Source: Parasitella parasitica NRRL 2501 (lineage: Eukaryota; Fungi; Mucoromycota). From it: a stretch of DNA of 64,000 nt. Shown piece by piece: positions 13,826 through 44,002 of this stretch (positions within the stretch are counted from its first letter, which is position 1; each line of letters begins with the position of its first letter). The stretch is from positions 62,001 through 126,000 of the forward strand of contig MU619273.1 of assembly GCA_025201805.1 (NCBI GenBank), given 5' to 3'. Under the pieces are notes generated by a model. That model made no database searches. It saw only the letters and a program-made list of their open reading frames with translations, and was not told the DNA's origin. The position numbers and the translations under genes were made by a program.

Positions 13826-15355
13826 ATCACGAAAGCATAAGCAGTTGTACAAAATTAGTTAGATTTTCACCAATTATATCACATCTTTTTCTTCTTTAAA
13901 CAGAATCGACAAATAAAAATTGTATCATAAAAGACCGAGTACAAAACTCCAAAATTGATTAATGCGTTCCAATCCCTATTGGTTTATGTCTTGCAGCAAG
14001 AGTGCATAACACAATGCTATTTTTAGCTCGCAAATGACGTTGGATACATGGATTAGTAAACACATCCTTTTTTCTACCTTGTTGCAATGTAAGTTTTCTC
14101 GAAATAATGGCTGGTACATTTTCGTAATGCTATCATGCACTTGAGGATATTCTATATATTTTTGCAACTGGATGTTGAACGGTTGTGACTAAATCGTGTC
14201 CTGAAATCGCAGATCAGAAAATTGAAATATGGATTGCACAATTACACGACAAGACACAAGTGGTTATAGAAAAAAAAACTGTGCAATAATACGAGTAGAT
14301 GAAAAGATATGAATAAGAAGAGGGAAAGAAAAAAAGCGAAAGAAAAGAGAAAGAGAAAAATAGAAAGAATGGAAAAAGTTGGCCTTTTTATATTTGAACA
14401 TCATAAAAAACCAACTCAGCTATTGAACAATGGCAAATCAACAAAAACACAAAACAACAATAGGTTTCAGTAGAAAGGGATCAAGGGTACGAGGCACGTG
14501 TGGAAACAATAGTGATGCTACATTTCGAGTAAATCCGTCAAGTATGTGAAAAAGTAATACAACACCTTGTGCTTATTTGGACTATGACGATGATGAGGTA
14601 AATAATAAATGCGTTCCTGAAAAATGCAAATCAAAATTTCCAAGACTTTTTGCCAAATAACGTGGGGAATAAAAATAATCCTTCAACGTAAAATACGTCA
14701 AGTTAAAAATAAGAAAATGGGTCAAAAACTTATTTAAAGAATTTTATTAATAGAAATGTTAGAGTCAAGCCAAAGGTGTATAGCTGATGTGGATTAATCA
14801 ATATGGAATCAAATTGAATTCAATAGAAAAAATACGAAAAGAAACGACGCACGGTCGTTGTGTATACTAATTACAAAAGAGAGGAAAAAAAAATTCGCCC
14901 GAACCTACCGAGTTACATATTTGGCATCACACCATCTTGGCATCACACAGAAGCACTTTTTGTGTTCTACACACAATAGAAAAAAATTTCGCGTTTTTTA
15001 GTAAACATTGTAAGAATTATTTTGGGATTTAGCCCCCTTCATTATACGATTTATTTTTTTATTAAAAGTTTAATATTAAAGAAATGACTAAATAAGGACA
15101 TGAATATATTTGTAGGGTCATTCCATACTTGGTCGAGATGACGGGGTAGAATAAAAAAACAGTGTATTTCTTGTGTTCAACATATCAAATCAAGGAGCCC
15201 AATCATATCAAAAATCTAATTTGGGAACATGCAGTCGTACATCTCCTAGGTTGCCCTTTTTTAAACAAATATAAATACAAGGACCTTTTCCCCAGTTTTC
15301 CTTTTTTTTTTCTACATCACATCATATTAAATCAAATCAGATTCAACCATAAAAA

Positions 15356-16156
15356 ATGACTTCTACAGCAATTAAAAATAATAATAAGCCTTTGAAGTGG
15401 GCCACCCAGCGTATTAATGCCAACAAGTCCACATACCGTGTTAATAAGCGCACGCCATTAAATAGCTCCACACGCACTGCTGCTGCTGCAGTAATGACAG
15501 CTGAAACTGAAAAAAATCCACATCAAGAAATTAAACGTTTGGAAAAGGAATTAGCTTTTACCTATGACAATATTGCGACAATCACAGTCCATTTCGAAAG
15601 TCTTCACCATGCTTATACCAGCAGCAAGCCAGAGCTGGATAAATCAAAATCTGCTACTCGCCTTGGTGAAATGGAAAAGGAGCTCTTGACCGCTTACGAT
15701 GATTTGGGACTCCAAGTTACTCATTTGGAACGCAAAATTGGTAAACTCGAAAAGAGAATTGCTCAATTGAAGCAGATTGCAGAAGCAACCAAGAAACCTA
15801 TAGTTGCCGCATCTACTGGACCAGTTTCCGTGCCTCCTCAAGTATCAGTTTCAGTAGCAGCACCAGCACCAGCACCAGTATCAGTATTGATTCCAGGACA
15901 ACAGTATGCATCTCCTTTGATCTACGATGAAATAAACTTGATTTCATCCCCTTGCTCATCAACAGACTCGTCGATCGCTGATTGTCAACTGGAAGCATCG
16001 GGATTTTATTGTGATGATTGGACCTTATCGCAGATAATCGAAGATCAAACCATGTTATTTGACAATTCTTTCCAATTCATGCCCTTGAACAACAGCTGTA
16101 TGGATTATTTCAACTGCGAAGATTTATTGTCATATCCCTCATTCATTATGCAATAA
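15356..16156 (+). CDS. Hypothetical intronless coiled-coil protein ('AYDDL' family, long form)
   Basis: 266 aa ORF with basic N-terminus, heptad region EKELLTAYDDLGLQVTHLERKIGKLEKRI and acidic/aromatic C-terminus; similar to 27927-28223. Confidence 0.75.
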   Translation: MTSTAIKNNNKPLKWATQRINANKSTYRVNKRTPLNSSTRTAAAAVMTAETEKNPHQEIKRLEKELAFTYDNIATITVHFESLHHAYTSSKPELDKSKSATRLGEMEKELLTAYDDLGLQVTHLERKIGKLEKRIAQLKQIAEATKKPIVAASTGPVSVPPQVSVSVAAPAPAPVSVLIPGQQYASPLIYDEINLISSPCSSTDSSIADCQLEASGFYCDDWTLSQIIEDQTMLFDNSFQFMPLNNSCMDYFNCEDLLSYPSFIMQ

Positions 16157-19599: not shown

Positions 19600-20752
19600 A
19601 TTAGCTTTATTAGATAGTAATCAGACATACAAATCCACAATTTTCCCTTGCTACCACAAGGTGAAAATTATATCCTAAATTTTTTTTGAGAACATGGTAT
19701 GGACTACATCTATGGATCAAGAGAAATAGTTTGGTATGCTTCAGAGTACTTGAAATACCCAGAAACTAGAATAGTGCACCAATCAAAGTGTGATTTTTGG
19801 TGCAACAATAACATTCACGGCATAGGTTACATTATAAAACATGGAATAAACACTAGTTCACAGATGGACATATAATCTCGTAGTAAAACCTTCTTCTCAA
19901 GGCACATTTGTCGATCAAATATGGGACAAGTATAGTATTCAAGGAGGTTTAATATGCTTATATTATATTTCATCATATCTGTCAAGCAATCTTAGGGTCA
20001 ACAAAGCTTAAATATATTTTTAACCATGCATCCCATATATGTAGTTGGAGTAAAATATACATTATTATGTTCATGCAGTCTAAATTTAAGTGATAGAACC
20101 CCTTTTTTATAAATTATTTGCTCTATAAGGATATTCGACTATTTTAGACACAAGTATAATACTCCTGGTAAATCTCATCACATAAATCTGTCCCTTTTTT
20201 TCCAATTTATTTTTGGACAGTTTTGTAGGGGATTACAGTAACACAATGTAGATCAGTTATTGTTATTATTAGATGCATATATGCCGTCATGTTGTCAAAA
20301 CTTGACAGATGAAAGCATCTGAAAAAGATAGTATGTGATCTTTACATAAACCTAACTTTTTGGATTTACTTTTTACTAAAGTCTTGATATTTCGTGTATA
20401 ATGTACATTTTATAGGCCTATACACTTACAAAGTGCATTTATACCGATCCTCACCATCAGTTATCCAACACTTTAAATATGAAAATCACTAGAATCTTTA
20501 ATCGTAAATTATAATTAAGAAATGTATTCGAAGCTACTTTGTGAGCGTTTCATGTAGTGTAGGGTGATTTGACCTTTGTATGTACAGCATATTTATAACT
20601 TGTTGTTTCGATAAAAGGATACAAAGTATCTTTTTCTTGTTTTTGTTTTTGCTATTATTTTACTCTTTTTCTTTTTTTTTTCCTTTCCTTTTCTTTTTGT
20701 CTTTATGTTGTTGCAATGATTGTTGGGAAGGAGGTGTCTTTTTTTTTGCGCA

Positions 20753-22411
20753 TCAGACTCGTCTTCTTCCTACACCTGTAGGTAGCTTTCCACCCCGTTT
20801 AGCTACAGCAACACCGTCGTTATTTCGTTCCTCTCTTCTTCTTTTTACAGGTTGGCGATATATTTGTGGAGCAGTAACTTGGGGAGTTTTGTTATTGTAG
20901 CTGTTGTGAGTGGGCATGGGCACAGTGTCCTCCTCCTTCAATTCATCAAAGTCGTCATCATCTGGGATTGTGTGGATGCTCTGTTGGGCTGATACCAGAT
21001 TTTCCGTTTCCAACCTCTCATTGACCCAGGTCATAGCTTCTAAAAATGCTTCTTTGCCCAAGTAAGCTTTACCTTCTCTGGTTTCGATTAGATACTCTCT
21101 TAGTGCTACAAAGTCTTGAGAAAAATGTCTAATGCTTCTAGGTCTTTCCACGAGCGATATATAGGTGCCAAACATGATGAATTCGATAGCCTTGACTGAA
21201 TTTTTCGGGGTGGCGGCACCGTTTTTAATCAGAACATTCTTCAACTCTTTGTCCATTGCAATGCCTTTAATCTGGTTCAAGACATATTCCACCTTATTGA
21301 CAAGAGCAGTTGATGGGGTTTCATTGCTGTGCACATAGGTTTGGAGGGCTTTGCCCGTAGCAAAGTTTTCTGTCCCGTTTCTAATAGTAAGCATAAGGTG
21401 TGCGATAAGTTGAAATAATGCTGCATGTCCTTTTCGCTGTAAGACTAAAGAAATCTCGTGGTTTTCGTCTGCTAATCGTCGACATTGCTCTGCGACCTGG
21501 GAATTAGTTGCTTTCAGTTTTTCTGCAGATGTGATGGCTACACCTAATTGAACACGAGAAAAAATCTCAAACTAGAAATCGGTCAATAACGTGTTTATTC
21601 ACCTTGCTCTAGTAAAACCTGGACATTTACCTCATCGTCTTCTGTGATATCTAAATATTCAACTTTTTGAAATTGTCAATCATGGCATACGAGAGCGAAC
21701 GACTGCAAACAAAGCTTACCACAAACAAATTCAAATTTATTGAATATGTCAAATTCTTCATTGCTGATGAAGTTATTGGGCTCTCTTTGAGCTTCTATCA
21801 AAAAAAAAAAGAAAAAAAAAAGTCAATACTCTAGTGCCATATCTACAAACAAGTCTTTACTTCTTAAGGCAGCTTCCGTCTCGTCATCCGCATCTTGATC
21901 TAGACGTTCGATATAGTATTTTTCAACAGCTTTTCCCGAAGAGGTATCCACATAAGGAAGAAGGTTTTTCAGGAATCTACTTGGTCAAGTCTAATATTAG
22001 GATCAATCCCTTCAGCTTTCTTTGGGCAAGATACTCTACCGTCTTGCTGAGGTCAATCTCTGTTTGCCATCAATGACGATTCGGACAAGTTGCCCCCTGA
22101 TTCGCCGTACAGCAAACAGTAGCGGTGGTATATAGTAATTGTTGATGATTGAATCTATCAGTTCACTCATTTTATTCGATTCCCAAATAATTTCTCTTTG
22201 ATACGGCGCATCCTAGTGTATCTTGTTAGTGTCTATAAACGGCAAAACAGCTGCACTACCGTACCAGTTGTATTTCCCCTCTCGAAATCATATCTAGCCC
22301 CAAATAAAAAACCTTTAGAACCTTGTCAACCCAAGATAATTGATATGTACCTTTTATCCGATGCACAGAGAGCATTCTGGTTCTAGGAGTTGGCAATCGT
22401 TTTACTGTCAT
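20753..22411 (-). CDS. DUF262 (GmrSD N-terminal / ParB-Srx-like) domain protein, 7 exons
   Basis: Spliced translation: MTVKRLPTPRTRMLSVHRIKDMISRGEIQLDAPYQREIIWESNKMSELIDSIINNYYIPPLLFAV...RIVIDGKQRLTSARRF...FEIFSRVQLGVAITSAEK. These match the QR, DGQQR-like and FxxxN-like DUF262 motifs, with no internal stops. Confidence 0.88.
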
Positions 22412-22576
22412 TTTCAATAATCTTTTTTCAAGAGTATTGGTTGTTCAAACAAAGTAGCTGCTCATCTTGGATTGCTTTAAAAGCGCGTTTCTTCGAAACA
22501 CAGTAAAAAACAGTCATTGAAAAGCACACATTCCACTTTACTGCTGCGAAACTCTCTTTTTGTTTGCAACATCAAC
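22412..22576. promoter_or_regulatory. Short bidirectional promoter between DUF262 and ZGRF1-like genes
   Basis: 165 bp between the two divergent ATGs; contains AAGCGCGTTT (ACGCG core, MCB-like) near 22481-22490. Confidence 0.5.
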
Positions 22577-24089
22577 ATGGCAGAAAATACAATTAGTAAT
22601 TTTATAGTACTATTCACTGCTCAAAAAACAAAGAAATTCAAAGTTTGGCAAGATGGTATGGACATTAATCTATCCACAATAGAACAACAAAGATTCACTT
22701 ACTAATTCATGTACTCAATCTTTCAGGGACAATGAAGTATTACAGCTTTAATAAAAGGGTAGATCTTGTAGTGACTCATGAATATAGCCTACCGTTATAT
22801 TGACCAACTACATATTAGCTGACACTTATCGACGAAAAAGGCTACAATATAGACAGGTACTTTATACTGCCATGACATGGCTTGCTTTTGCTTGCTAACA
22901 TTTACTAGAAAATTTCACAAAGGGGGCATTCCAATGGTGGGCGATGAGATAGATTTTGATAACCATATTGTAACGATTGAGTCTTTTGGAACAACAGAAA
23001 TTGCGTGTAATGCACATCAACGGATAATACCAAACCACAGGAAACCTACACTAAACGCAGCACCACAAAATCCTGATAATCCATCGCCGCAATCTACCTA
23101 CTCATCAGCCTCAACATCCCTCTTCACACCTACATCTTCATCCACTGCAATCCCTTCTAGATATAATCAGCAACCAATGCGTACATTGCAATTCAAACCG
23201 CCTTCTGTGATTCCACGAAAAAGATTGATTAAAGTAGATCCAGAGGAAATGGAGGAGGAAAATGCTGTGGAGGCTTTTGAACCTAGAGCACCCCAAGCGG
23301 TACAACAACCGACAGATCACCCAATGTCATTCGAATCGAGCATTGAAACATCAGGGTCTCGGGAATCAGCTCAAAATCAGTCATTACGCCCAAATTCTAC
23401 CTCGAATACAAACCAGCAGCATCAGCAGCCTAGCATATCCAGTATACCCCCCGCCACAGTAGCACCACCGCAGGAGCAACCGAATCTCTCAGAATCATCA
23501 ACACCTGCTTCATCGCCGGCTAAAAAGAGAGTCCGAGTAGGATTATCCAAGAAAACAACGTCGGTACTACATCAAGTAAACACAGCGAGCAGTACTGGCG
23601 TATCACCGTACAGGCCTCCAACTGTTGCAAGTAGATCAGCAGCAACGCCAACAACAACGCCATCAGTAACTCTAGCTCCTTGTTCTCCTTCATTTACAAA
23701 GGCTTCTAATATTGGAAATAATTTTATAGAAGCAGCAGATACTGCCAACTTGCCACCATCAACATTATCTTGTGAGCAAAACGAGAGCAGTAGTAGCAGC
23801 TGCAATGGAGAATCTAACGCTTCGAAACCTTTCAAAAGCCCTTTCGCAGAGGGAAAGTACGTACTGTTGTAGTATCTTCAAACACTCGTACTAACATTCT
23901 ATAAAGCTATACATCCTTGGTACTTCAGTTTCCAAATAGCAAAAAGGCACTATCAATCATTAAATCCAAAAACTACCCAAAGCGTTCAAAAGTTGTACCT
24001 GTCAAGTTCAGTAGCACCATATTGTACAAGGAGACATTTAGGAAAGTTATTCAGGAACATTTAGATGTGAGTATTTTACAGTATTCATT

Positions 24090-24132
<43 letters not shown>

Positions 24133-26600
24133 AGGTGGTTTACTCTGGTAATAATGTGATTCTATACATTCACAGGTCTTGCTACTTAATTTTGGCATGT
24201 TTTTTTACGCAATGTACGAAAAATTTGGCAAAAGCAAACAAGGGCCAGATTTGGAACGTGCGCTTCGATCAAAAGGTATTGGACTTTATGTCGACTGTCA
24301 GCTCAAGGGAGATTTGCGGTACAGCGAAAAAAGATTCCGACTGATGATTAAAGGTGGCAGTCGAGAGCATTACTCTAAATACAACAAGGACGATTTGTGG
24401 GCTATTTCCAAAGTATCTACGTTTGAATCTAGCCAAACTTTCCTTGCTAGAAGCACATACTTTGGCCCCTTCTCCGATGGCGCTTTAGAGATCGATTGCA
24501 TGTCCCCCAGAGACGTTCGAGTTGCAGCCAAGGTCTTCAAGGAAAGCCATGCTGTTTATGCTATTCGTACTATCTCAGCAAGCCAGGAATGCATGATGTT
24601 GGATACGCTAGATAACAAGTTGGAACAACTGCCTTTACTTCCCCATCTTTTATCAAATAACGATAATAAAAAAACAAAGAAAACAGCGTCGCTGTTGCCG
24701 GAATTGGATTGTATTCGACTAACTCGTCAAGACAATATCGATGTAGACGCAAAATTAGCAGATTATATCCGCACATACGGATTAAATCAAGATCAGGAAA
24801 GGTACGCTGTGGAGTATTGAAGGCGGTAGAATTGCCACAGGATTACTTATTGGCTTCTTCTTAGCGTATTGCGCCAAGTAGCAAGATCTGTGATTGTTAG
24901 CCCAGGATGGAACGAAGCTGCTCAAACCCCCTTCGTCTTGGTACATGGTGTTTATGGGTCAGGCAAAAGTTTTCTTGCAGCAGTTATTATCATATTTATT
25001 CAAGATATTGTCGACACAGCTTCATCAAGAAGGGAGCCTGAGGATGCTATTCAGTTCAAGATCTTGGTGTCTTCGATGACTGTAAGTTGGTTTGTCATTA
25101 ATCCCGACGATTGACACTGATATCCACACTAGAATGTCGCGGTTGATCGCATCTTGCAAACGCTGTTAAAGCTTGGCTATGATCAATTCATTCGTATTGG
25201 AAGCATGAAGAAGATTGCCAAAAACATACTGCCGTTTACATCTAAAGCAAGAATATCTGGCAATGAAGAGCTAAAGGAACTGGAGCAAATGTTAGGGGAT
25301 CCGCTCAATTCAGAGGAAGACTCAGATAATATCTCGACAGCAATTCAACGATTTCGTCAAACTGAAAGCACGAATCAGTTGCTAACAGTCAGTGTTGTAG
25401 GAACAACGTTCATGTCTTCCACATTCGATATATTTATAGGCATGAAGTTCCCGCTAGTGTTGGTTGACGAGGCTTCTCAGCTAATGGAGCCTCTGACTCT
25501 GGTGCCCTTGACAAGGTTTTCTTGCAATCGACTGATATTAATTGGAGATCCCTTACAATTACCACCCACACTCGCTACAAATGCACAAGACGGAAAAGCA
25601 GGGAAGGGGCTCGACAAGACATTATTCAACCGCATGGCTGAATTGGGATATGAGGTACGTGTTGCGTATGACATGCCAATGGATAAGCAGCTAAAGCGTA
25701 TTCAATTTATGCAGTCTGTCATGCTGAGAACACAGTATAGAGTAAGTGTGGTTTTACCGGACTTGAGCTTTGTTTAGGAATTTTGTCATGATCCTTATAC
25801 GTGCATTTAGTGTCACCCTCGAATTTCGGGAATCAGCAATGCGTTATTTTATGAAAGGAGGTTAATTAATGGCGTTACCGACCAAGACAGAAAGCCTTTG
25901 ATAGACGGTCTACCGACGCTATTGTTTGTGGATGTAGGAGGAACGGTATATATTGGGAATCTTTCGACACAAAGTATGCCTTTCATGTTGATGCTTTCTT
26001 GTAGGAGCAGAAATCAATGCGCAGTAATTCTTTTTGGAATGATACCGAGATATCCATTGCATCGTATGTACTACAAACCCTGATTTCATTTGACATTTCA
26101 AGCAAAGATCTTGGGGTTATTTCGTTATGTAGGTGGAAGTTTTGTATGTGTGAAAAGCTATTAATTGTGTGTTTTTGAACAGATAAAGAGCAGGCGGACA
26201 AACTTTCAGAATACCTCGGCGCGAACACAGCATCGGATGCAGCGGCAACACTGAAAAGTGTTCAAATATCTACCGTAGACGCCTTTCAAGGAGGAGAGAA
26301 AGATGTCATCATACTGTCGACAGTTCGTACCAGTGAGAGTCAGTTCATGGATAACCAGCCTCGTGTCAATGTTGCCTTGACCCGTGCCAAGCGTCATTTA
26401 ATCATCCTGGGAAATAGAAATGTGTTTAATATGAATGAACTATGGTCCAAAGTACTATGGGATTGCCAAGGTATTGTGTTGTATAGCTTTTTACTAGAGT
26501 TCTGTGCACAACATTCTGACTCGGAATCTTGACTATAGAACATTGCATGAATGAGAATGGGTTAAGATCTTTATTAGCAAACATCGATAATAAAAAATGA
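22577..26600 (+). CDS. ZGRF1: ZGRF1/Mte1-like protein: N-terminal DUF2439 plus C-terminal UPF1/DNA2-like SF1 helicase
   Basis: N-terminal FIVLFTAQKTKKFKVWQDG (DUF2439), SKYNKDDLWAIS, Walker A VHGVYGSGKS, LVDEASQ, IGDPLQLPPT, TVDAFQGGEKD and RVNVALTRAK. Confidence 0.88.
24092..24132 (+). repeat. (GA)n microsatellite plus G-run within a ZGRF1 intron
   Basis: gagagagag...ggggggggggg seen directly. Confidence 0.9.
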
Positions 26601-26601
26601 A

Positions 26602-27404
26602 CTAAGGGCGATGATCTTCCTGTTTAGAATTGTTGCGCTGCTGCTTTCGTTTTATGAAGCTGTCAATTTCTCGATGCGGAAGAAAACTGCAGGCAGCAAT
26701 ACCAACAGCCGTAGTGTCTACTTGTTTGTTAGAGCCATTGGTTATAGTAGCTTTCGCGTCAGTGGTATCTGACCCATGATGGTTATGTGGCGCGATCTCT
26801 TTCCCGTAATCAGGATGATTGCGTGTTCTTTGTCTTGCTTGTCCCGTGTTGGCAGACGACGTGTCGAACAAAGCTATCTTTTGGATGATGTGGCGCGAAT
26901 ATTGAGCCTTTTTTTCGCTACCATTCTTGAGTGGTGCCTGGCGATGCTGGCAAGAAGAAATAGGGGCTTTTGTGGTTTTTATCAATGGAAAGCATTTCGA
27001 TTTCTCTTGCCAGTTCCATGTAGGCACTCCAATTTTTGAATACAGGCTCGTATCATCTAAAAATAGGGAGTCCTGCAAGTATATATTGGGTATTTCAGGT
27101 GACATGCTGGAGAAAGGGATGTTCCAATCGTGGTCAATCTTATCTAGCAAACTCTGCACTGTAGGAGACACACGCCATTTCATACTAGCCTCGTCTAAGC
27201 AGATGTCATCTGGAAGCTTTAGATCTTGGACAGCTCTGCTGTACTTTACAAGCGAAAGAAGTTGGTAATATATTTCTAATATGATTATTAATCATGTGTC
27301 TTTTGTGACAAGACGGTAAATAGCCATGTACTTTTGTCGATAACCACTGGAAAATAATCGAGTATATCAATGCGTATCTCATCGTCAACACATGCCATAG
27401 ACAT
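26602..27404 (-). CDS. Hypothetical protein (2 exons)
   Basis: MSMACVDDEIRIDILDYFPVVIDK, then a GT-AG intron, then KIYYQLLSLVKYSRAVQDLKLPDDICLDEAS joins ORF 26602..27183 in frame. Confidence 0.6.
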
Positions 27405-27926
27405 TTTGTTTGTAGGAAACCAAAAAAAATAGGTAGTTCGATATGAACTGGTATACGCAGCTGTATATAACAGTACTTACGGACCATCTACAGTTTATCT
27501 AAAAAACAGGAACATTCCATTTGATTGGTACGATTCTACGGCCCATGTGTTTATCACAAAGTATTTGGCATCTGCTTGATGTCAGTGGAGTCTTGGCTTT
27601 TCAATCATGTTTCGCGATGATCTGATCGATTTCATTGTCAACATATAACTTCTAGGATAAAAATGGAAAGCGAGAAGGAACAAAGAATCCGGAACTTGAC
27701 TAAAAGCGACACTATGTACTACCTGACATTTTTCATATCATTGTAATACGGCTAAACGTATCTTTTTGGAAACAAAGCAGAATCGCTCATTTGTACAATG
27801 ATTTCTGTTGAATTTTTCAGTATATGTATACAATGGAAACCTGCGGAAAGCTTCTCAAAGTATATAAAGAGCTCAGATTCCATCGTTTTTTTTTCTCCCC
27901 TTCTCTTCCACCACCTTTAATCCAAC

Positions 27927-28223
27927 ATGCACCCATCAAGGCATAGAAACAACATCCAAACTCAATACGAGGCAATCGAAGAACTACAGCAGCAACTACA
28001 TGAGCTACAAACGAATCGCGCGTCTATGGAAATTGTGTATACATCGCTCAAAAATGCCTTCTTGATATACCCTTGCACAGAATGGGACGAGGTGGACAAA
28101 GAAATCGGCAGAGCGTACGATGATCTGATGGCTCAAGTGAGGCAGCTGGATCGCTCATTAAAAAAATTGGACAAATGCATAAAGTCGACAGAGCAAGATG
28201 TCAACAAATCAACTCTTACATAA
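27927..28223 (+). CDS. Small intronless coiled-coil protein ('AYDDL' family, short form)
   Basis: 98 aa ORF with EVDKEIGRAYDDLMAQVRQLDRSLKKLDKCI; TATATAAA at 27861; similar to 15356-16156. Confidence 0.7.
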   Translation: MHPSRHRNNIQTQYEAIEELQQQLHELQTNRASMEIVYTSLKNAFLIYPCTEWDEVDKEIGRAYDDLMAQVRQLDRSLKKLDKCIKSTEQDVNKSTLT

Positions 28224-31144: not shown

Positions 31145-32460
31145 CTACAACTGCTCTCTTGTCTTTTTAACAACAATAATCTCGTTTTCCAACAATGATT
31201 TTCGTTTGTTCTTGTTTTTTTCAATCTCGAAACTTTTCAAATCAGCCGTAAATAAAACCTAAATTTAAAAAAAAAATCGTTCTTTTAGCATCCTTTTGGG
31301 TAAACAAACCACGTTTAAAACGTACAGAATGAGCCCATCCACTATATTCTCCAAACAAGGTTCTAAAATGATCTCCAACCTGGATATACAATTTGCTATC
31401 AAGTGTTTTGCCCTTTTTCTTGCTGTTGAAGCCATAATCCCTTAGTGCAATCTGCCACACGTGTGTGTCTACTGGTATGGATTCCGTCTGATCCAATGAC
31501 ATGAGGCACTAAAGGGTCTTGTAAATTCAATGAAACATCTTCGTACAGCAATATTTATACCACGCAATCAGCCACTTTTGGTCCTACACCTTGTAGAGTC
31601 ATTAAAGACGATTTAGCTTCTTCGTAAGGTACATTTCTAAGAGTGTTGAGCCATTTTTCCTTGGATTCGGGGTGATCTGCTTTAATTTTGAGACATGTGT
31701 TGGCTATATACTTTGCCCTATACCCAAATCCTAACTCCCTCAGAATCGATTCGGTCTTGTCAGTTGCTGTGATCTCGTCCAAAGTAGGGAATGCATAAAA
31801 CTCTTGGTCATCTAACGTAGCGACTTTCTCGCCAAATCGAACGCACATCTTGTTTACCTTAACAAACAAAAAGCAGACTATTAATGACCAGATCCATTCC
31901 TTACTACAGTTCTCGCTTTTCTCTTACCATTTGTGAGATTCTACCAATATTGTTATTACTGCTGCAAATAAAAGAAATCAAATTTTCCCAAGGATCCTGT
32001 CGTAACATGCGAATGCCTTGCAAATTCTCTGACTTCCTTGCAAAATTAGTGTCCAGTTTGGCCCATCGTTTGTAGCAATCCTCCAACGAAACTTTATCCA
32101 GCTGAAAATAATCTCGAATTGCTGCTTCTGCTCCTGGTTTCAACTCCTGATTGTAACCGTATAATATTGTAGAAGCTATTTATAAAATGTTGATGCGCTT
32201 TTGTCCTTGCTGATATCTATGGACACTTACGAGTTTCTCGCAGTATGACCAGTTCGCCATCTAAGGTAGAGACCCTATTGTTATGTATATGTATTTCTTG
32301 TCTGAAAAACCAAGCAATAGTAATTGTTCGAAACTTACCAATTTTCATTCAGCTGTTTCCAGCGAAATGATTGTCCACATCGAAGAGTGTTTAACCTGAG
32401 TTCATTGGGCGATACATGAAGGTCTTTCCATAGTAAAGATGCAGATTGCAATTTCAACAT
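31145..32460 (-). CDS. OGG1: 8-oxoguanine DNA glycosylase
   Basis: LRCGQSFRW, LRQDPWENLISFICSSNNNI, LGFGYRAKY, HhH motif LQGVGPKVADCVCLM, IPVDTHVWQIA and GWAHSVLFTADL. Confidence 0.96.
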
Positions 32461-42977: not shown

Positions 42978-44002
42978 CTAATCTTTCAATAGTGCACCAG
43001 CTACAGCTAATTTATCTGCCTTCTCGTTACCATCGTATCCACTATGGCCAGGAACATACGTGAACTTAATGTCTCCTTGTCTGTTTCCAATTAAATTAAC
43101 AATCGGCTCAAACAAATCTCTATTCTGAACTTCTTTTCCATTAGTGCCTCTCCATTCTTTTTTGACCCAATTTTTATACCAAACAGTTGCTGCATTGATA
43201 ACGTATTGAGAATCAGTTCTAATTTCTAATGGTTCACTGCTATTTTTTGTTTGATCTAAAACATGCAGTACAGCCATTGCTTCAGCTCTTTGGTTCGTTT
43301 GTCGCTCGCCCTTCAACCTAGCGCTCACGTTGCGGGGATCATTGTCCCCCCAATACACACCGTAACCAGCGCGGGCACATGATTTGCCATTGTTTGACGA
43401 AGCACCATCCGTGTACACAATTGTGTAAGGTTTTTTTTTTAGCTGACTAGATTTGCGGCGTAGCCCTGTGTTTTGCGATTTTTTAGGTCTTGCGTTATCC
43501 GCGGTGAGCTCTTCACGATTTCTCTTCAGGCCTACCAAAGGCGAAGGTTTTAAAGGTTGATTAAAGTCATCGGCGGCTCCGCGACTGAACTGTTTGAATA
43601 TGTTTACTCTTGTTGCTTGAAAATGTGGCACTGGCTCTGGAAGTTTAAAGCTGCCGGTTGGATTACCCAATTTCACGAATGCTTCGGCTTCTGTTAGTGT
43701 TGGAAATTTTTTGAATTGAGCCTTACTAACTCCTTTGACTTGTGCTTGGCAATCAGGCCATGTATTGTAAACGCCAGGCTTTTTTCCAACCTTTACTGCG
43801 TAGTAAGCTTTAGAACCCATTGTGGCAGATATATATCGTCTTGTTGCAAATCCAAAAATGATAGATATTGTATAAAACTGAAGAAAGGTAGGGATGCAAA
43901 GTTTCAGGTAACTTTTTACACCTCGCGGTGATTAATTTGGCCTCTAGTCGTAGTCCAATGTCCGAGGACCACAACAGCCATCTTGAGCAAGAATGGTGGC
44001 AT
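42978..44002 (-). CDS. RNH1: Ribonuclease H1 (hybrid-binding domain + RNase H) with a predicted spliced N-terminal extension
   Basis: YYAVKVGKKPGVYNTWPDC (HBD), VYTDGASSNNG, QTNQRAE, IRTDSQY and GHSGYDGNEKADKLA. An upstream exon from ATG 44002 splices in frame; the core ORF starts at 43820. Confidence 0.92.

Follow-up and report, generated by a model that had tools for sequence, protein, structure and literature searches.

Head-to-head pairing of a nuclease-less DUF262 gene with a ZGRF1-type helicase gene in Parasitella parasitica and the recurrence of this neighbourhood among Mucorales

In bacteria, the DUF262 domains of GmrSD and SspE sense modified phage DNA (PMC12065111), BrxU depends on the pocket residues S42, Q101 and R102 for its function, as described in PMC8565348, and PMC12065111 proposes that NsnA, the sensor subunit of Menshen, activates an ATPase distinct from itself. 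ZGRF1, a helicase, functions in recombinational repair according to PMC7473174. Databases tag the fungal DUF262 proteins automatically as GmrSD_N. That these proteins have no described function, as the original prediction held, agrees with our literature searches, which gave no study of the family: the only eukaryotes mentioned in the GmrSD phylogenomics paper are diatom, green-algal and heterolobosean ones, its main text does not contain "fung", and the supplements of PMC4619093 and PMC12065111 may list fungal sequences. Here we describe a locus of P. parasitica in which a DUF262 gene and a ZGRF1-type gene diverge from a common gap (Table 1), within a window of 64,000 nucleotides (the whole stretch of DNA that was analysed).

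Table 1. Features of the DUF262-ZGRF1 locus, in window coordinates
Feature	Position	Strand	Description
DUF262 gene	20753..22411	-	seven exons (22411-22351, 22293-22265, 22212-22040, 21976-21861, 21794-21720, 21662-21631, 21571-20753); 434-aa ParB-DUF262 + ParBDB-like product
DUF262 exon 3	22040..22212	-	motif I QRxxxW (Q35-W40), LIDS (S51), motif II DGKQR (D78-R82); predicted nucleotide pocket
DUF262 exon 7	20753..21571	-	motif III variant, helical ParBDB-like domain, acidic patch, KRRR, C-terminal A[RK]RG
Probable 3' UTR of DUF262 gene	20480..20752	-	poly(A) near 20480; 9-T loose end, single X7 contig
Gap between ATGs	22412..22576	.	165 bp; putative bidirectional promoter, activity inferred
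ZGRF1-type helicase gene	22577..26600	+	13 exons; 1085-aa SF1 helicase

The DUF262 gene had been read as a stop-free, seven-exon gene of the minus strand carrying PYQRxxxW, LIDSIxxxYYIPP, DGKQRLTS and EIFSRVQxG, and both the structure and all four motifs were confirmed. Its 1305 coding nucleotides hold no internal stop, and its six introns, of 52-66 nt each, are all GT-AG. Introns 1, 2, 3, 5 and 6 are skipped, by listed joints, in a contig of run X7, which we took as RNA by guess and whose contigs carry neither level nor start; intron 4 is absent from the same contig by record arithmetic (107 nt, equal to exons 5 and 6), and none of the splice joints appears in the DNA run X1. A database entry under the name Parasitella parasitica matches exon 7 at 100% identity, its protein model starting at Met45. 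The gene is intact and spliced, and a pseudogene reading was dropped. By window ORFs and Pfam, the neighbours are ZGRF1, one gene without assignment, a septin and OGG1.

Profile searching bears out the identity of the product: exon 3 alone matches PF03235 with an E-value of 1.4e-13 and 51.8 bits (curated cut-off 33.2), and full-length homologues score 47-73 bits. With motifs I, II and III defined as in PMC12065111, and their roles taken from PMC8565348 and PMC12065111, motif II (DG[KQ]QR) is present in 108 of 110 fungal rows, and S51, Q81 and R82, the counterparts of the three BrxU pocket residues, are invariant in a 19-row alignment. At the motif III position FxRxQ stands in place of FxxxN, a conservative and clade-wide replacement that also occurs in giant-virus rows. 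Since the pocket residues are kept, NTP binding and hydrolysis are predicted. The ParB/Srx fold that had been proposed was recovered in a predicted model (pLDDT 74.7), which matches PadC (Z 8.7, rmsd 3.1, 94 aligned) and sulfiredoxins (Z 6.1-6.2); the top Foldseek matches are BrxU (E 6.5e-6), SspE and ParB. For the helical domain alone the best match is BrxU 238-418 (Z 8.2, rmsd 4.8, 160 aligned); among helical domains a Z near 8 is modest. The middle regions of two other DUF262-family proteins, SspE and DndI, align over 140-161 residues. A sequence profile of the helical part alone found no match among bacterial rows (probability 0.6); with the DUF262 profile, stand-alone DUF262 proteins of bacteria matched at probability 99.7 across 246 columns. 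PDB sequence searches and an NCBIfam scan with the DUF262 proteins returned nothing. After residue ~355 the protein is disordered, with an acidic and then basic tail (pLDDT < 50).

The absence of a visible HNH (DUF1524) partner, already remarked upon, extends well beyond this gene: Pfam finds no HNH in four full-length Mucorales homologues, in 47 further fungal homologues (51 altogether) or in the 23 other ORFs scanned in the window. Lacking a DUF1524/HNH domain, the protein is not predicted to cleave DNA. For all four full-length proteins the best PADLOC model is NsnA (PDLC03877; E 2e-15 to 1.5e-7), and the architecture is NsnA-like rather than that of a full GmrSD or SspE. The likening of the gene to GmrSD and SspE stands as regards the domain and gives way to NsnA as the closer model, and to giant-virus genes as the apparent nearest relatives; a phage collection searched for DUF262 yielded three weak records.

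Members of the fungal family occur in chytrids, Glomeromycota, Basidiobolus, Mucorales, Pezizomycetes and Agaricomycetes. No Mucorales assembly has a second copy among the 120 rows listed, and the Mucorales sequences branch largely by family in our trees, as expected of a housekeeping gene; one Coprinopsis genome has at least eight rows among the matches listed, an expansion that looks, for that lineage, more like a conflict gene. The trees, a quick one of 85 rows and a careful one of 46 hand-picked rows, were built with loci thinned at 55% identity, with row P0118, which has no motif II, dropped, and without protist or algal homologues. Giant-virus rows group with the fungal clade in the careful tree with support 100/98, a grouping that does not fix the direction of virus-fungus transfer because the trees are unrooted and had no AU test. 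The top five Foldseek matches in BFVD are likewise giant-virus DUF262 proteins (E 7e-16 to 1.6e-12). Judged from these comparisons, the nearest sampled non-fungal relatives of the family appear to be giant-virus genes (Yasminevirus, Indivirus, Catovirus, Hokovirus, Tunisvirus; loci L001, L002, L084, L105 and L086), for whose products we found no described function. Introns and a single fungal clade bear out the supposed domestication in fungi; recent horizontal transfer or contamination was rejected on the grounds of introns, splicing and family-like branching.

These data bear on the proposal that the protein, as a sensor of modified or foreign DNA, forms a defence module of two parts with the ZGRF1 helicase, to which it would signal or which it would load. 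The sensing of modified phage DNA by GmrSD and SspE and the proposed ATPase activation by NsnA (PMC12065111) are in its favour, together with the fast evolution and the Agaricomycetes copy expansion of DUF262 and the HNH of giant-virus relatives (fused in L105, adjoining in L084). We nevertheless hold it to be decidedly improbable: neither the gene nor the ORFs scanned contain an effector, DUF262 is single-copy and largely vertically inherited in Mucorales, and ZGRF1 is a pan-eukaryotic repair helicase. Nor does the distribution of the family track the level of 6mA, which, in the data of PMC11258239, is low and scattered in Mucor (0.05-0.26%) and low in Glomeromycota and chytrids, phyla that have the family. 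With 6mA low in Mucor and the family common among fungi poor in 6mA, the suggestion that the protein recognises 6mA finds little support.

The exons of the divergent gene match PF10382 (DUF2439), AAA_11 and AAA_12 in Pfam, and its product runs from DUF2439 through a disordered linker to a UPF1-like helicase with intact motifs, so that its earlier classification as ZGRF1 type is upheld; identity to Mucoraceae orthologues is 71-78%. Ten of its introns come from X7 joints and the last two were picked by the longest open frame. The GRF zinc finger is absent from the window helicase by Cys pattern, and PF06839 from the Pfam lists of the Mucorales orthologues: the gene is a ZGRF1-type orthologue without this finger.

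The two ATGs, at 22411 and 22577, indeed lie head-to-head at the distance first given. The MCB-like ACGCG noticed between them is present (22484-22488, minus strand) within a GCGCGT (22483-22488) that contains the CGCG and GCGC cores of PMC4862756, but it is incomplete, the full ACGCGT and longer consensus patterns being absent from the gap, and it is near chance level, with ACGCG in 2902 of 61584 N-free 165-bp windows (4.7%) and in 7.2% of shuffles. Continuous X7 contig cover of the gap was rejected as evidence because that contig runs on through several further genes.

Adjacency in other species was scored by consecutive accessions of the orthologues alone. The pair is consecutive in 7 of the 13 other Mucorales species with both genes located, belonging to four families (Mucor ambiguus, Choanephora, Rhizopus delemar, R. 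arrhizus, Phascolomyces, Zychaea and Circinella umbellata); where R. arrhizus assemblies are broken, the helicase piece with an accession next to that of the DUF262 gene is the N-terminal one. It is apart in the remaining six, on the same contig in three and on different contigs in three, and in both non-Mucorales fungi checked. The expected synteny is kept in part, and an obligate sensor-helicase module is not supported, given the separated pairs; the pairing is old, and fits a shared promoter and a likely role in genome maintenance. Clusters common to Lichtheimia and other Mucorales, of at least three genes each, make up 7.6% of the Lichtheimia genome in PMC4133162, a loose control because it gives no genome-wide rate for two-gene adjacency. 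In a metagenome scan, among whose listed matches there was no Mucorales contig, none of the 227 DUF262 loci listed has a ZGRF1-type helicase match, the only match having been to the additional AAA portion of a single fused model. Identity to M. ambiguus over 13 species is 30-75% for the DUF262 core and 43-82% for the helicase; the core evolves faster.

Passive linkage, in which two genes with unrelated jobs stay together since a gap holding both promoters is seldom broken by rearrangement, is a possible but doubtful account of this pattern. It accommodates the Mucorales in which the pair is split, the separate persistence of both genes outside Mucorales and the compactness of the region, where one probable-RNA contig of run X7 chains genes from 20480 to past 30853. 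It explains less readily a pair kept across Mucorineae and Lichtheimiaceae, between which shared clusters are scarce by the figures of PMC4133162, and two products that are both predicted nuclear DNA-handling enzymes. As PMC2871058 presents the matter, conserved divergent gene pairs in fungi are more often functionally related, and short divergent gaps are also kept for reasons of spacing.

Within the otherwise unconserved disordered tail, and preceded by the acidic patch, sits A[RK]RG, which 33 of 34 Mucorales proteins but 1 of 76 other fungal rows carry within their final 70 aa. This motif, which we take to resemble stretches of histones H3 and H4, would together with the acidic patch suit a chromatin regulator, built on a repurposed DUF262 core, whose tail mimics a histone and recruits chromatin readers, or acts as a decoy for them, at its own promoter or at others. 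We consider such a role very improbable: A[RK]RG may simply direct nuclear import or, as a signal of the RG type, bind nucleic acid, and the most histone-like member, when searched by sequence against the PDB, gave no histone match, although so short a motif would escape such a search.

The explanation that we prefer, tentatively and at somewhat less than even chances, is that this nuclease-less protein of DUF262 and helical domains acts as a DNA-binding switch, gated by nucleotide, that helps the fungus to maintain its own genome, and is co-expressed with ZGRF1 through the gap; a DUF262 gene kept beside a repair helicase in four mould families likely helps to maintain the DNA of its host. By analogy with BrxU, SspE and NsnA, the pocket would bind and hydrolyse NTP, the NTP cycle would switch the protein between dimer and monomer or between open and closed forms, and DNA would be gripped by the helical domain; the tail may provide nuclear import and, in replacement of the lost nuclease, a docking site for a host partner, and the pair may be retained since replication, or replication stress, calls for both genes. 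The model needs no direct DUF262-ZGRF1 binding. An alignment-free complex prediction for M. ambiguus (helicase 428-1090 and DUF262 8-344, without the tail and DUF2439) gave no verdict, with a score of 0.00. Counting against the switch are the species with separated genes, a cis site near chance, the fact that spacing alone can keep short divergent gaps (PMC2871058), the faster evolution of the core, the Coprinopsis copies and the Q for N in motif III. A more far-reaching version, which we judge improbable, has the gene taken up early from giant viruses, stripped of its nuclease and wired to ZGRF1 as a eukaryotic ParB-like, nucleotide-gated clamp that would mark stalled forks, lesions or foreign DNA for the helicase, its histone-like tail serving as a chromatin handle and the two genes forming a co-regulated pair in Mucorales. 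Conservation of the neighbours in four families gives the fungal DUF262 family its first functional lead, towards replication and repair. If its pocket is active, the family would offer a nucleotide switch of the ParB type acting on eukaryotic DNA and, alongside SBF, a second case of early fixation of a virus-related gene in fungi.

Compared with the systems already described, the locus combines clear likenesses with clear differences: (i) Human ZGRF1, yeast Mte1 and the fungal helicase have in common an N-terminal DUF2439 and a C-terminal SF1 helicase, vertebrate ZGRF1 being 38-39% identical to the fungal protein over ~660 aa, whereas the latter has no GRF finger and is shorter (~1085 versus ~1900 aa; PMC7473174). 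(ii) In fungal SBF/MBF (KilA-N; PMC4862756), too, a DNA-binding domain related to viruses became fixed early in fungal history as a single clade, but their fold is unrelated, and SBF has a cell-cycle role where the DUF262 family has none described. (iii) The giant-virus proteins, 23-34% identical to one another, have CIDGKQR, FxRxQxG and acidic and basic tails as the fungal ones do, and differ in that some of them have a fused or adjacent HNH. (iv) The N-terminal and middle domains of GmrSD/BrxU and SspE superpose on the fungal protein, with the pocket residues kept, but these enzymes carry DUF1524/HNH and have 560-770 residues, against ~350 folded residues here. (v) In NsnA, too, ParB-DUF262 precedes a ParBDB-like domain of eight helices, motifs I and II are present and a nuclease is lacking, whereas the fungal gene has introns, FxRxQ for FxxxN and a long acidic/basic tail and, in place of the NsnB ABC ATPase and the NsnC effector of Menshen, is adjoined by an SF1 helicase.

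The DUF262 gene is real and intact, and it is probably expressed. Its seven exons join into an open frame of 1305 nt that encodes 434 aa with zero stops, and its six introns are all GT-AG and 52-66 nt long. In a contig of X7, a sequencing run that by guess we take to be RNA, listed joints show five of these introns skipped and arithmetic on the record shows the same for the sixth, as expected from the spliced minus-strand gene of the original prediction; the same contig is also spliced across the helicase gene, and none of these joints was found in the DNA run X1. A database protein labelled Parasitella parasitica (P0001) matches exon 7 with 100% identity. This deposited model lacks exons 1-2 and motif I (QRxxxW) because its start was placed at Met45, and the longer model is supported by the X7 contig.

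The two ATGs lie 165 bp apart (helicase ATG at 22577). The helicase gene has 13 exons (ten introns from X7 joints, two picked by open frame) and encodes 1085 aa; DUF2439 and an intact UPF1-like helicase domain bear out the ZGRF1-type assignment, and a GRF finger is absent from this protein. Tail to tail with it, and under X7 contig cover, stands an open frame whose end and the helicase stop are 1 bp apart. OGG1, some 5 kb beyond the helicase, and RNase H1 are two further genome-maintenance genes nearby. Two coiled-coil ORFs have in common a short stretch similar by eye, and are possibly paralogues. In Calcarisporiella thermophila, one protein model (P0046) carries a ZGRF1-type helicase plus a Vps4/fidgetin-type AAA ATPase in its Pfam list; this may reflect a real fusion or two neighbouring genes merged in the model.

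Features of the window and homologues at other collected loci
Feature	Position	Strand	Remarks
DUF262 gene	22411-20753	minus	seven exons
C-terminal A[RK]RG motif, end of exon 7	20780-20815	minus	motif census; also in homologues P0106, P0255
ZGRF1-type helicase gene	22577-26600	plus	
Open frame	26602-27291	minus	229 codons, no Pfam match
OGG1 glycosylase gene	31242-32179	minus	
RNase H1 gene	42978-43931	minus	
Coiled-coil ORF	15353-16156	plus	no confident Pfam family
Coiled-coil ORF	27921-28223	plus	no confident Pfam family
Virus-like homologue	L105:1191-2510		N-terminal HNH fusion
Virus-like homologue	L084:3751-5542		convergent HNH neighbour
Patescibacteria-type homologues	L148:4397-7254, L149:2455-7296, L163:4958-7248, L116:4375-7255		FxRxQxG motif

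Exon 3 matches PF03235 above the cut-off, confirming the DUF262 identity. For the Mucor ambiguus orthologue, AlphaFold (pLDDT 74.7) gives a ParB/Srx domain to about residue 170, followed by a helical one at 175-350 and then by a tail modelled as disordered, and BrxU, SspE and ParB take the top Foldseek ranks for this model. Folded alone, the helical part best matches BrxU 238-418 (Z 8.2, rmsd 4.8, 160 aligned) and aligns over 140-161 residues with the middle regions of SspE and DndI, against only 53-87 for most other rows; its sequence profile alone gave no match. On this model it is the ParBDB domain described in PMC12065111, at a modest Z near 8. Counterparts of BrxU S42, Q101 and R102 (residues from PMC8565348) are unchanged in 19/19 aligned rows, and motif III has Q in place of N. 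NsnA is the best PADLOC model. HNH was found in none of 51 fungal homologues scanned, in line with the observation that no such partner is visible here. The tail bears an acidic patch, a basic stretch and the motif A[RK]RG, which is present in 33/34 Mucorales proteins vs 1/76 other fungal rows; in Mucor flavus and Helicostylum the motif resembles a stretch of the histone H3 tail.

Three points speak against the original reading: (i) a site like the MCB-like one between the two ATGs occurs in 4.7% of windows of equal size; (ii) sensing of 6mA-modified DNA is disfavoured, the family being present in Mucor, Glomeromycota and chytrids despite low 6mA (0.05-0.26% with few clusters in Mucor, and low in the other two, in PMC11258239, where the main text does not name Parasitella); and (iii) a defence module is opposed by the absence of an effector among the window ORFs scanned.

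Synteny of the pair, judged by consecutive accessions or locus tags read without strand in species with both genes found, holds in part. A second P. parasitica assembly has the two genes numbered consecutively, as do 7/13 other Mucorales species: Mucor ambiguus, Choanephora cucurbitarum, Phascolomyces articulosus, Zychaea mexicana, Circinella umbellata, Rhizopus delemar (RO3G_11006/11007) and R. arrhizus (several assemblies; in broken ones, the piece adjoining the DUF262 gene is the helicase's first 218 residues). These span Mucoraceae, Choanephoraceae, Rhizopodaceae and Lichtheimiaceae. In the other six they are apparently on the same contig (R. microsporus, 18 tags apart; Circinella minor, 20 tags apart, in an order possibly not positional; Benjaminiella, 215 accessions apart) or on different ones (Radiomyces, Chlamydoabsidia and Cunninghamella echinulata, with short contigs), and in 0/2 species outside Mucorales (Basidiobolus, Spizellomyces, different contigs) are they consecutive. 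Clusters of at least three genes common to other Mucorales make up 7.6% of the Lichtheimia genome (PMC4133162). In fungi, divergent pairs that are conserved are more often functionally related, but a short gap by itself also predicts conservation (PMC2871058). Passive linkage is the main rival, and we rate it as the less likely reading. Somewhat short of even confidence, we infer instead that the DUF262 protein would be a nucleotide-gated switch that binds DNA, that it would serve genome upkeep, and that one promoter may serve both its gene and ZGRF1.

Searching with a profile yielded 735 representatives with an E-value no higher than 1e-10 (150 listed), and the named matches, among the best 120 of 299, come from Mucorales, Glomeromycota, Basidiobolus, chytrids, Pezizomycetes and Agaricomycetes. 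In the main tree, accompanied by a quick tree of 85 rows, one branch (100/99) sets the fungal rows apart, and another (100/98) separates them, together with five virus-like rows, from 23 prokaryotic-type rows. At one collected locus (L001), the homologue lies among poly(A) polymerase and TFIIS genes of mimivirus type, and the five best viral fold matches are proteins that we take to be of Klosneuvirinae and marseillevirus type. Kinship of the fungal family with giant-virus genes is supported, but not its direction, because the sample was selected by resemblance to the fungal query, leaves out protists and gives an unrooted tree. Mucorales branching largely matches families; deeper fungal branches match the species tree only partly, chytrids grouping with Agaricomycetes (93/87). 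Coprinopsis sp. MPI-PUGE-AT-0042 has eight rows among the best 120 of 299, five on contigs all sized 475947, a local expansion vs the single copy of Mucorales. The four Patescibacteria-type homologues, which share the FxRxQxG motif with the fungal family, sit immediately after methylase, restriction, HNH or SIR2 genes, and their loci are candidate undescribed defence cassettes.

The fungal family is apparently unstudied. Its protein is NsnA-like, although the gene family is not part of a Menshen system, and it differs from GmrSD in not being a nuclease of that type.
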